Shown here: piece by piece, positions 32,019 to 57,654 of the stretch
Layout of the letters: every line of letters starts with the position of its first letter
How positions within the stretch are numbered: position 1 is the first letter of the stretch
IMG/VR virus record: IMGVR_UViG_3300045016_000151
Location: 82,078 to 146,077 of that record
DNA: 64,000 bases
Origin: a virus
Lineage: Duplodnaviria > Heunggongvirae > Uroviricota > Caudoviricetes
Reading direction: 5' to 3' (one strand)
Program-made: the position numbers and the translations under genes
The notes under the pieces: model-generated
What the model was told of the DNA's origin: nothing
Seen by the model: only the letters and a program-made list of their open reading frames with translations
Database searches by the model: none

Positions 32019-32224
32019 ATTATTATAAACAAGTAAAAATACAATATGATGATGGTGCATTTGAAATATGTTGGATACCTGAAGAATTTGCACACAAGCA
32101 TCGCCGAATTATAGTAGATGATAAATATGCTAGAGTATTAATAATCTATATGGACATTCGTTTGACTGAAGATCTTATTGAAATAAATCAAAAATTTCCG
32201 TTACGGAAAGCAACCGATATATGA
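32015..32224 (+). CDS. hypothetical protein
   Basis: ATGA-coupled. Confidence 0.5.
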   Translation: MNYYKQVKIQYDDGAFEICWIPEEFAHKHRRIIVDDKYARVLIIYMDIRLTEDLIEINQKFPLRKATDI

Positions 32225-54614: not shown

Positions 54615-55120
54615 AATTTGGGCTCGACAGGAATCGATTGAATGAGATGTAGTATAAATGCATAGCGTCAGTGAACCGATGACGTAAAATCCGTTTAAAC
54701 AATAAGTGCAGAAGAAAAATCTGACATGACTTTTGAACAGGCTTTGGCACTAGTCGAAGTACCTGTAGCCGTAATGGCCTAATCGCTGACAAGAGAACTC
54801 GATAGCAAGGCCCCAATTGCTATGAGTGCGATAAACGGGGATGTAGGCCACTTGTCCGAATACAAGTAAGTCCTAAGTATGTAGTTGTAGCAGACGACCG
54901 ACTAAAAATACAACTAACTATGTGAATGAATTTTTATTAAATCCATGCAAGACCGGGGTTCGACTTAGTATTAGGTCGCTTATATAGAAATATATATGAC
55001 AAAAGAAAGCTCAAACGGCGAAACCCCTGCTAATAGCGAGGTAACACCGTCGGGTATGTAAAGAAATTTAACAGCTCGCTATCGACTTATAGAACTCTAA
55101 AGTATAAAAACTATGAGTTA

Positions 55121-55543
55121 CTAGGATAGTTGGAAAAATTCTTTTTCAAATTGTTTTTTTCGTCGTATTTGTTCTTTGGTGTATTTACCGTTGCGAACAG
55201 TCAATTTAGCATAATATCTTATAATGAATTTCATCCGACGTGATTTCTTTGGATGTCTAATATAAGGCAATAATTTATGCATTACGTCTATTGCATCAGC
55301 ACGAGTTATTTTCCAACTATATGCAATCATGTAATTTCGCTTTTGACGGCCATGATTACAAATAATTCCGCCAAAATATCGTTGTAACGGTAATAAAATT
55401 TCTAAACACGTATTAGCTACAGATAACACAGGTGATCTGTACTCTCCGGAGTGATTATGTGTTAATGTAACTGAACCCTCACCATCGACGATGCCGGCGG
55501 TCCAACTATAAATGCTTTCTATCTTCGTAGTCTTTTTGGACAT
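55121..55543 (-). CDS. single-motif LAGLIDADG homing endonuclease, antisense within intron
   Basis: WTAGIVDGEGSV motif; AGGAG SD before MSKK. Confidence 0.88.
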   Translation of the reverse strand: MSKKTTKIESIYSWTAGIVDGEGSVTLTHNHSGEYRSPVLSVANTCLEILLPLQRYFGGIICNHGRQKRNYMIAYSWKITRADAIDVMHKLLPYIRHPKKSRRMKFIIRYYAKLTVRNGKYTKEQIRRKKQFEKEFFQLS

Positions 55544-55567
55544 GGTAATCTTTTCTCCTATATCCAA

Positions 55568-55596
55568 AATATACTAAAAGATAAGGGAATAGTCAA
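55568..55596 (-). promoter_or_regulatory. antisense promoter for intron endonuclease
   Basis: TTGACT-17 nt-TATATT on minus strand; -35 box overlaps P7 3' strand. Confidence 0.6.
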
Positions 55597-55709
55597 GTCT
55601 AAAATGAAAATTTTAGAGTTACTGCCCCGCGAGTCCACCAAGGAGGTTTCTTTTCGTAGTACGTTATACTTCCTCCGTTCAAAATAAATAAAGGAAAACG
55701 TACCAAGAC

Positions 55710-56178: not shown

Positions 56179-56529
56179 ATGACAAAAGAACAATACAATC
56201 AACTAAAATCCGAGCTTAAAATCTTAGCTCAATTTCTTCATTACGACAACTATAATTCACGTGCCTACCAATCACAAAATGCCGGTGGCAAAAAGAAACC
56301 AAAAGAAATACCAGAACAATTAGAAAAGCAATTTAAGGAATTAAATATAAGTCCTTGGAGAGCTCACTATGAGTATAGACATAAACACATATTTATGTCT
56401 TTACAACGTGGTAAAAAACGTGAACAAATCGAAAGACCAAGACAAGGTAACGAACCCGATGAAAATTACATCAAAAAACTTGTGGAGCAGTATGAAACAG
56501 TTGAACAGACTGTATGTGTTAGTGCGTGA
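56179..56529 (+). CDS. hypothetical protein
   Basis: GGAG SD; overlaps the PTH2-like gene. Confidence 0.65.
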   Translation: MTKEQYNQLKSELKILAQFLHYDNYNSRAYQSQNAGGKKKPKEIPEQLEKQFKELNISPWRAHYEYRHKHIFMSLQRGKKREQIERPRQGNEPDENYIKKLVEQYETVEQTVCVSA

Positions 56530-56791
56530 AGACTTAAATCTTACATACGCTGGAGTTCAAGCTGGACATGCAGTAGCAAAATTTATGTTAGAATTCCCAG
56601 GTATATGGTGTAATACTACACTTATATATTTGCGGATAAAGAATGAGGATAAGCTTATAGAATGGCGTGACAAATTAATTGTCAGAGGTATTCCGTATGC
56701 TTTATTTAGAGAACCTGATTTAATGAATCAGGCAACTGCCGTCGCTGTATTGAGCGATGGTAATATATTTAAAAATGTAAAATTATTGTGA
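56492..56791 (+). CDS. PTH2-like peptidyl-tRNA hydrolase homologue
   Basis: LYVLVR.DL....AGVQAGHA, F.EPD....TAVA. Confidence 0.65.
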   Translation: MKQLNRLYVLVREDLNLTYAGVQAGHAVAKFMLEFPGIWCNTTLIYLRIKNEDKLIEWRDKLIVRGIPYALFREPDLMNQATAVAVLSDGNIFKNVKLL

Positions 56792-57079
56792 CAGTAAAAA
56801 ATGAAACTATGCAGTTAAAACCACCAAATGGGCCGGGGATCCATAGCCTCGTTAACCTCCTTTGGGCTGGCGTGTTGCCCATTAACCTTATTGGTTAGCT
56901 ATGAACAATCATAGTACTGTTCGCCAGAACTGCATTCCAGAATGATTTAGGTTAATTGCGAAAGCCCCTGGAACAGGGGAGTCCTACGCATACTTACCCG
57001 TCGTAGGTGAGCCTGTCTAATTATGGGTTAGACCCAGGGTCGATCCAAAAGGTAAGCTCGATCGAAATTAACTATTGTC
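56790..57079 (+). ncRNA. unclassified ornate RNA candidate (about 290 nt)
   Basis: At least nine helices including crossing pairs and a CTTACC/GGTAAG kissing loop. Confidence 0.6.
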
Positions 57080-57150
57080 TGCGTGGCCGAGAACGAAATA
57101 AGCACTAGTCTCTAAAACTAGTTACACGGGGTCGTTCCCCGTCGCAGACA
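57077..57150 (+). tRNA. amber-anticodon tRNA (CTA) with non-canonical D/T loops
   Basis: GTCTGCG/CGCAGAC; CTAGT-CTCTAAA-ACTAG; T loop GTCGTTC; no GG in D loop. Confidence 0.75.
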
Positions 57151-57155
57151 CTTAT

Positions 57156-57483
57156 TCCTCTGTGGTGAAATGAAAAGAGATGTATATTTGTTACGTATTA
57201 ATATACATTACTAAGTCACTAGATTGAATTAGTAGGTGACAGCATCGAGTTACCAGTATAGACTGTTCTTTATGGTCAAGTTCAGAGCAAGTGTATTGGA
57301 AGAATAACTAGGATGAAGCGATTAAACCAATTGTCATGCGACGAACGTTTAGTTGCGTAGCGGCTGAATATTCAATTGAAAATTAGAATGGGATCTTTAC
57401 TACTCCCTGTCGAACGCTTACAAACGGAACTGACTGTCAGTAGACTAAAAGTAATGCTGCAGGTTTGAGTCCTGCCAGAGGGA
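57156..57483 (+). ncRNA. expanded/interrupted tRNA-like RNA (328 nt)
   Basis: Acceptor TCCTCTG/CAGAGGG, T arm GCAGG/CCTGC, CATTACT/AGTAATG helix enclosing about 237 nt of structured insert. Confidence 0.65.
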
Positions 57484-57654
57484 TAAATTTTTATCCGGAC
57501 GGCGTATTATTCTCTCGACGCCTAATAAATATGGGGAGATTATCAGTCCTGTCATAAACAATTCCGCTCAATGAGCACCGGAGCCATTTGATAGGACTTT
57601 TGCATTATATATGGCTCCGCCACGATTACAAAAAACTTTATATCAGGAGATATA

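Follow-up and report, generated by a model that had tools for sequence, protein, structure and literature searches.

A 328-nt RNA with a leucine tRNA frame and a predicted doubly knotted core in the tRNA island of a phage

The window, a stretch of 64,000 nt (positions 82,078 to 146,077 of the virus record IMGVR_UViG_3300045016_000151), comes from a phage genome of 215 kb that uses the standard code. Stop-codon recoding of the genome was considered and rejected, since code 11 fits and TAG terminates 8 of 158 long ORFs. The tRNA island in the window comprises 35 tRNA genes, and the 36 kb that it spans consist wholly of tRNA genes. A genuine, intron-split tmRNA at 54620, a PTH2-like gene, a nucleotidyltransferase and an RNA ligase were also found in the window. 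The intron of this tmRNA (54620-55640) splits the T loop and carries a LAGLIDADG-like ORF on its other strand; the tmRNAs of relatives are uninterrupted. A further gene of the phage, at G000:C1:21990-22928 near a lone tRNA-Ala, codes for a Ro60/TROVE protein (E 3e-36). Neither RtcB nor a class Ia synthetase was found in the genome.

Eight related loci were reached via neighbouring proteins. The region 56179-57150 holds a 116-aa uncharacterised gene, which is usually followed by the PTH2-like gene. In all seven distant phages reached through the 116-aa gene (L047-L053) it is followed by a tRNA with an amber anticodon, and such a tRNA also follows it in the window although the genome is not recoded. 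The stretch preceding the amber tRNA (56790-57076) is devoid of ORFs, and in this slot relatives have non-coding sequences of their own, 200-290 nt in length. Another RNA, about 135 nt long (57494-57628 in the window), lies downstream of the amber tRNA slot and is kept in 8/8 related loci, with double changes at 10 of 14 consensus pairs. It has a likely H-type pseudoknot at its 5' end, its last stem ends in CCGCCA, and the window copy is without Rfam match.

The RNA studied here is located between the amber tRNA and the 135-nt RNA, at 57156-57483 on the plus strand. No ORF of at least 50 aa overlaps this region, neither ARAGORN nor Rfam calls a tRNA on it, and no Rfam match was obtained up to E 10. 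Its features are given below; those marked 'by comparison' were assigned with the help of two further copies, L204 and L013.

57077-57150, plus strand: tRNA with amber anticodon, a separate gene 5 nt upstream of the 328-nt RNA
57152-57162, plus strand: acceptor 5' strand; 57156-62 correspond to tRNA positions 1-7, and 57152-55 may add four pairs
57163-57173, plus strand: U8 and G9, D stem 5' strand (57165-67), A15 (57170), G18 and A19 (57172-73)
57179-57209, plus strand: hairpin of 10 bp inserted in the D loop, window copy only
57217-57219, plus strand: D stem 3' strand; U11-A24 here, C-G in L204 and L013
57222-57377, plus strand: domain I, closed by helix P1 (57222-29/57370-77) at the anticodon-arm position (by comparison)
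57231-57368, plus strand: motif of loop-E (bulged-G) type, AGUA (57231-34) opposite GAA (57366-68), stacked on P1
57253-57299, plus strand: hairpin P3/P3b, the apical loop of which holds the pseudoknot 1 5' strand (57274-82) (by comparison)
57318-57356, plus strand: hairpin P4, variable in sequence
57390-57407, plus strand: hairpin P5; loop positions 4-8 (57397-401) form the pseudoknot 2 5' strand
57428-57435, plus strand: pseudoknot 1 3' strand (by comparison)
57450-57454, plus strand: pseudoknot 2 3' strand (by comparison)
57455-57475, plus strand: variable-loop-like UGCU ending in U48, then the T arm with U56 in its loop (by comparison)
57476-57486, plus strand: acceptor 3' strand with discriminator A73 at 57483; CCA is not encoded

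The tRNA frame of the RNA is real, with an acceptor, a leucine-type D arm and a T arm. As stated in the original prediction, the acceptor and the T arm are intact: the former pairs 57156-62 with 57476-82 (7 bp, extendable to 11) and is followed by A73, and the latter is located at 57459-75. The first 17 nt resemble the phage's own leucine tRNAs, and the leucine-type start at 57163-57173 was assigned by comparison with these tRNAs, L204 and L013. A15 and U48 are retained in all three copies, while the elbow pair 19-56 covaries (A19/U56 in the window copy and L204, G19/C56 in L013). Compared to tRNA-Leu (RF00005), the leucine-type D arm, A15-U48 and the elbow pair are thus present; the anticodon arm and the long variable arm are absent and the core stands in their place. 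The hairpin noticed in the D region, described earlier as 9 bp long, was confirmed with 10 bp and a pairing probability of 0.96. L204 and L013 have ordinary D loops without this hairpin and, given the ordinary leucine D arm of L204, it is a private insertion of the window copy. A73 is found in two of the three copies. In L204 the acceptor is disrupted, with only 5 bp plus a 12-bp extension, so it is probably not charging that is conserved. This suggests that processing and shape, rather than charging, are under selection.

L204 (JGI contig, positions 1515-1805) carries its copy between a tmRNA and a tRNA-Met. It is 55% identical to the window copy (nhmmer E 4e-6), and the alignment of the interior scored above all 1000 shuffles (p<0.001), which indicates a true homologue at the sequence level. 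In L013 (8233-8514), a leucine-framed RNA of 282 nt occupies the same slot as the window RNA and has the same architecture; no significant sequence similarity to the window copy was detected. A descriptor consisting of the P1 helix, the AGUA/GAA loop E and flanking GAAR, with gap limits that were loosened once L013 was in view, matched at only four places in 6.4 Mb: the three copies (window, L204 and L013) and L161, a chance site. Based on this specificity of the descriptor, loosened post hoc as it was, L013 is treated as a distant member of the family. Both L204 and L013 belong to the same uncultured phage family as the window phage.

Further searches did not extend the family. The two-sequence model R1 did not detect L013, and it gave no match among 25 viral records and another 23 loci. 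No homologue in isolated phages or plasmids was found by blastn, and none was obtained with five DNA patterns in viral contigs and two in genome contigs, where the matches turned out to be ordinary tRNAs, intron tRNAs or chance sites. The distribution is patchy, as the RNA was not seen in the examined stretches of five other relatives, and its position varies between genomes. No published description of this RNA family was found in the literature, which was covered incompletely. A leucine-framed RNA of 226 nt at L052:9841-10066, with encoded CCA and an insert that is unrelated and yields no splice solution, was considered as a relative and rejected, as it has no sign of the core seen in the window copy.

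The core follows the D arm in the order P1, linker and P5, with P1 enclosing the hairpins P3 and P4 and a purine-rich linker between P1 and P5. P1 is canonical at 8/8 pairs across the three copies and shows double changes at five positions. The AGUA/GAA motif, which we take to be loop E from its established consensus, has an identical register in 3/3 copies. P3 (7/7), P3b (4/4) and P5 (3/3) are likewise canonical throughout. Pseudoknot 1 pairs the P3 apical loop with a strand located 20-23 nt before the T arm; it is canonical at 5/5 pairs in the three copies, three of them with double changes, and three further invariant pairs are shared with L204. Pseudoknot 2 starts at the fourth base of the P5 loop and its partner strand ends 3-4 nt before the T stem; all four pairs are Watson-Crick in the three copies, with double changes at each of the four positions. 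In sum, the six core helices are canonical at 31/31 pairs across three distinct sequences, on which the covariation rests and whose three-way register was set by hand, and very few nucleotides are invariant. On this comparison, all three copies are predicted to share a long helix at the anticodon-arm position, the loop-E motif and a pair of long-range pseudoknots. Two other pairings were rejected: one between the P5 loop and the 5' strand of the D arm, which suits two copies and fails in L013, and TGACAG/CTGTCA as an anticodon stem, which has two of six pairs broken in L204.

The helices named in the original prediction compare unevenly with this fold; the tRNA frame and some stems stood, and several helices proved to be specific to one copy or to pair in another register. 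All of them can be found as complementary letters, between which a single sequence does not decide. The long CATC/AGTTA/CCAGTATA stem is present in the predicted fold. The letters of GTCAC/GTGAC, of the proposed multiloop AAGCG/CGCTT and of the ACTGA/TCAGT hairpin are indeed complementary, but none of these pairings is conserved, each losing two of five pairs in L204. CATTACT (57206-12) and AGTAATG (57450-56) could form a helix of 7 bp, which is however missing from the predicted ensemble. The CATTACT strand is located within the D-loop insertion found only in the window copy, and AGTAA is the pseudoknot 2 3' strand, the conserved partner of which is the P5 loop (57397-401). The CTA-AA preceding it, likened earlier to the amber tRNA, lies outside any anticodon loop; it belongs to the linker that joins two pseudoknot strands, and L013 lacks it.

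Statistical support for a conserved fold is mixed. The region 57156-57483 folds more stably than its shuffles (z -3.0), and the two-sequence consensus fold exceeds column shuffles (z -3.9, p 0.004). Considering the two sequences alone, neither the count of double changes (p 0.07) nor the count of long-range helices (p 0.5) is significant, and the pairs predicted from the window copy alone are conserved only at p 0.10. Pseudoknot 2 emerged from an unbiased two-sequence scan and persisted in L013 at a fixed register, for which we estimate a chance fit of about 0.25^4 = 0.004. The case for the fold rests on L013 fitting a register that is fixed by anchors.

The original prediction considered that the insert could be an unrecognised class of intron, or that the RNA could be a second suppressor needing protein-assisted splicing. 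Phage tRNA introns do exist and some of them are unclassified (10.1101/356790). A rule-based test, in which every single excision was scored, replaced ARAGORN scoring, which was too permissive to decide. No canonical tRNA resulted from the window copy, L204 or L013, compared to three and five from two controls, phage tRNA-Leu introns for which the expected UAA tRNA was recovered. Among 561,000 double excisions of the window copy, eight passed the filter as odd products and none of them carries a CUA anticodon, which leaves the proposed suppressor without a product. Moreover, the conserved pseudoknot 2, whose end is 3-4 nt away from the T stem, ties the core to the 3' part of the frame and holds the site that the 3' strand of an anticodon stem would require. 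The RNA ligase gene at 32221, which had been put forward as a splicing factor and could speak for an intron, is real (PF09414 match) but shows no link to the 328-nt RNA.

The covariance models of Rfam give no intron match up to E 10. The group I model RF00028 has no match on the 328-nt RNA; it also missed L189 and the intron of the window's tmRNA, so this null result weighs less. The only look-alike of a group II domain V, P4, was rejected, as it has AGT instead of the AGC triad and its stem layout differs in L204, in agreement with the earlier remark that no domain V is to be found. GACUA as a P7 strand was also rejected, since its partner lacks the G-C pair and GACUA is missing from L013. 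Taken together, the sequence comparison largely refutes the intron reading, and we regard a self- or protein-spliced tRNA, amber suppressor or not, as very unlikely. Of the two controls, L147 (6333-6624) scores 85 bits with RF00028 as a group I intron in tRNA-Leu(UAA); the insertion is displaced toward the anticodon stem and the canonical product is not exactly at a U/G junction. L189 (minus strand, 338 nt) is a tRNA-Leu(UAA) intron at the standard site with U/G junctions, missed by Rfam at E 1.

A second tmRNA was considered as well. The window copy contains a short frame ending in LVA-stop after a resume-like context, but no reading frame is conserved across translations of the three copies, so the RNA is not a second tmRNA. 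The tmRNA assignment was further rejected because of C3-G70 in place of the alanine G3-U70, and because of topology, as the D stem covaries and the closure of P1 is separated from the T arm by about 80 nt. All three loci have a separate, genuine tmRNA. A related reading holds that the RNA enters the ribosome like a tmRNA without message, EF-Tu delivering the charged half and the core contacting a stalled or terminating ribosome. It would fit the tmRNA-like size, A73 in two of three copies and the location of all three copies within about 1.5 kb of a tmRNA, PTH2-like gene or amber tRNA; this proximity says little in an island made up wholly of tRNA genes. Given the missing alanine pair, the intact D stem, the lack of a conserved ORF, the closure of P1 in the middle of the molecule instead of beside the T arm and the disrupted acceptor of L204, we consider ribosome entry unlikely.

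Other readings concern the core. Catalytic and ligand-binding RNAs typically have double pseudoknots, loop-E motifs and purine-rich junctions, and all of these occur in the core, the junctions in conserved form. A new ribozyme or ligand-binding fold acting in cleavage, ligation or sensing, which the tRNA half only delivers, is nevertheless improbable in view of the very few invariant nucleotides and because none of the ribozymes and riboswitches in Rfam matches. Mimicry of tRNAs is known from bacterial Y RNAs, and the phage genome encodes its own Ro60, to which a Y RNA-like ligand could bind. For the window RNA such a role is highly doubtful: there is no match to YrlA (RF02553), the three copies do not share a conserved bulged-C terminal helix, and a separate YrlA-like RNA (L204:2015-2123, 47 bits) is located near the L204 copy. 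A decaying remnant without present function would account for the patchy distribution and the varying position, but hardly for compensatory changes throughout core and elbow at 55% identity or less, and is in our view the least probable of these readings.

Based on the results obtained for frame, core and excision, we conclude that the locus probably encodes a non-coding, unspliced and non-decoding stable RNA of about 330 nt, in which the tRNA half would be a handle and the core would bind protein. The comparison shows that the upper half of a leucine tRNA is retained, with its acceptor, its D and T arms, the elbow and A15-U48, and that a compact core with the loop-E motif and two pseudoknots replaces the anticodon and variable arms. 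The core is predicted to be conserved, knotted, unable to decode and not removable. Of the readings given in the original prediction, that of a tRNA-scaffolded non-coding RNA is supported by the conserved frame and core and by the lack of a splice solution. The comparison of homologues suggested there was made with L204 and L013, which share the architecture and show compensatory changes in the core.

The acceptor-T arm and the elbow are read by RNase P and 3'-processing enzymes, so that the frame would free a stable RNA from the island transcript. In the proposed mechanism, the RNA would be transcribed together with the tRNA island and excised by host tRNA-processing enzymes, with RNase P acting at the 5' end and trimming at the 3' end. 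CCA would be added by a host enzyme or by the phage's nucleotidyltransferase. Being cut out by host tRNA enzymes, the tRNA half would serve as a handle for maturation and stability. The core would be the working part and bind a protein, which is the weakest step. Most likely the partner would be a host factor, of translation or directed against phages, on which the core would act during takeover as decoy or RNP scaffold. It is conceivable, though rather unlikely, that the core is a functional fold of unfamiliar type, which either works as a catalyst or captures with high affinity a host protein involved in translation or defence. In that case, a natural tRNA handle would deliver the core, which would be the first mechanism for stable RNAs of the T4/T5 kind.

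Compared to known RNAs of similar size, the group I introns of tRNA-Leu(UAA) (RF00028; L147 and L189) resemble the window RNA in overall length and leucine frame, but they yield a canonical tRNA on excision and the window RNA family does not. tmRNA (RF00023) is alike in size, tRNA-like top and pseudoknots, and differs in its alanine identity, the lack of a D stem, a conserved tag frame and another topology. The 'enigmatic' tRNA introns of Lak megaphages reside in anticodon-assigned tRNAs, with intron-less alleles for tRNA-Thr (10.1101/356790). Lak phages likewise have oversized tRNA genes with unclassified inserts, whereas no excision of the window RNA restores a tRNA. This serves as a warning for annotation, as not every oversized phage tRNA gene contains an intron.

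The closest likeness is to stable RNAs of T5 and T4, the role of which has, to our knowledge, long been unexplained. RNA1 and RNA2 of T5 are annotated as 'tRNA-like stable RNA with unknown functions' (AY543070). Like the window RNA, they are located within a tRNA island and have an acceptor, a D-region and a T arm, but no anticodon loop. RNA1 even shares the leucine-type D arm, and the frame detector registered it as leucine-framed. At 125-144 nt, they are shorter than the 282-328 nt of the family and match neither the loop-E/P1 descriptor nor model R1. A viable T5 deletion covers the coordinates of RNA1 if its numbering follows AY543070 (10.1101/2024.01.02.573894), which is consistent with an accessory role and with the patchy distribution of the window RNA family. 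T4 species 1 RNA (rnaC), expressed late (PMC9697503), is also a stable RNA in a tRNA cluster, with a T arm, a CCA end and an unassigned function; it differs in its length of 139 nt, the lack of a leucine D arm and the lack of detectable core homology. About ten leucine-framed RNAs of 97-120 nt were found in unrelated phage loci, none with the core.

On sequence grounds, the window RNA appears to be of the same kind as T5 RNA1/RNA2 and T4 species 1 RNA, combining the upper half of a tRNA with a non-decoding insert. As the inserts are not homologous, this is a likeness in kind and not membership in the same family. The family indicates that a tRNA frame can hold some 240 nt of core with conserved tertiary architecture; this speaks for a specific function and against a decayed tRNA. 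Its pseudoknot and elbow pairs lend themselves to precise tests by compensatory mutation, and the RNA is well suited as a target for structural work. With a doubly knotted core that matches no Rfam family, it presumably represents a much larger variant of the T4/T5-type stable RNAs.
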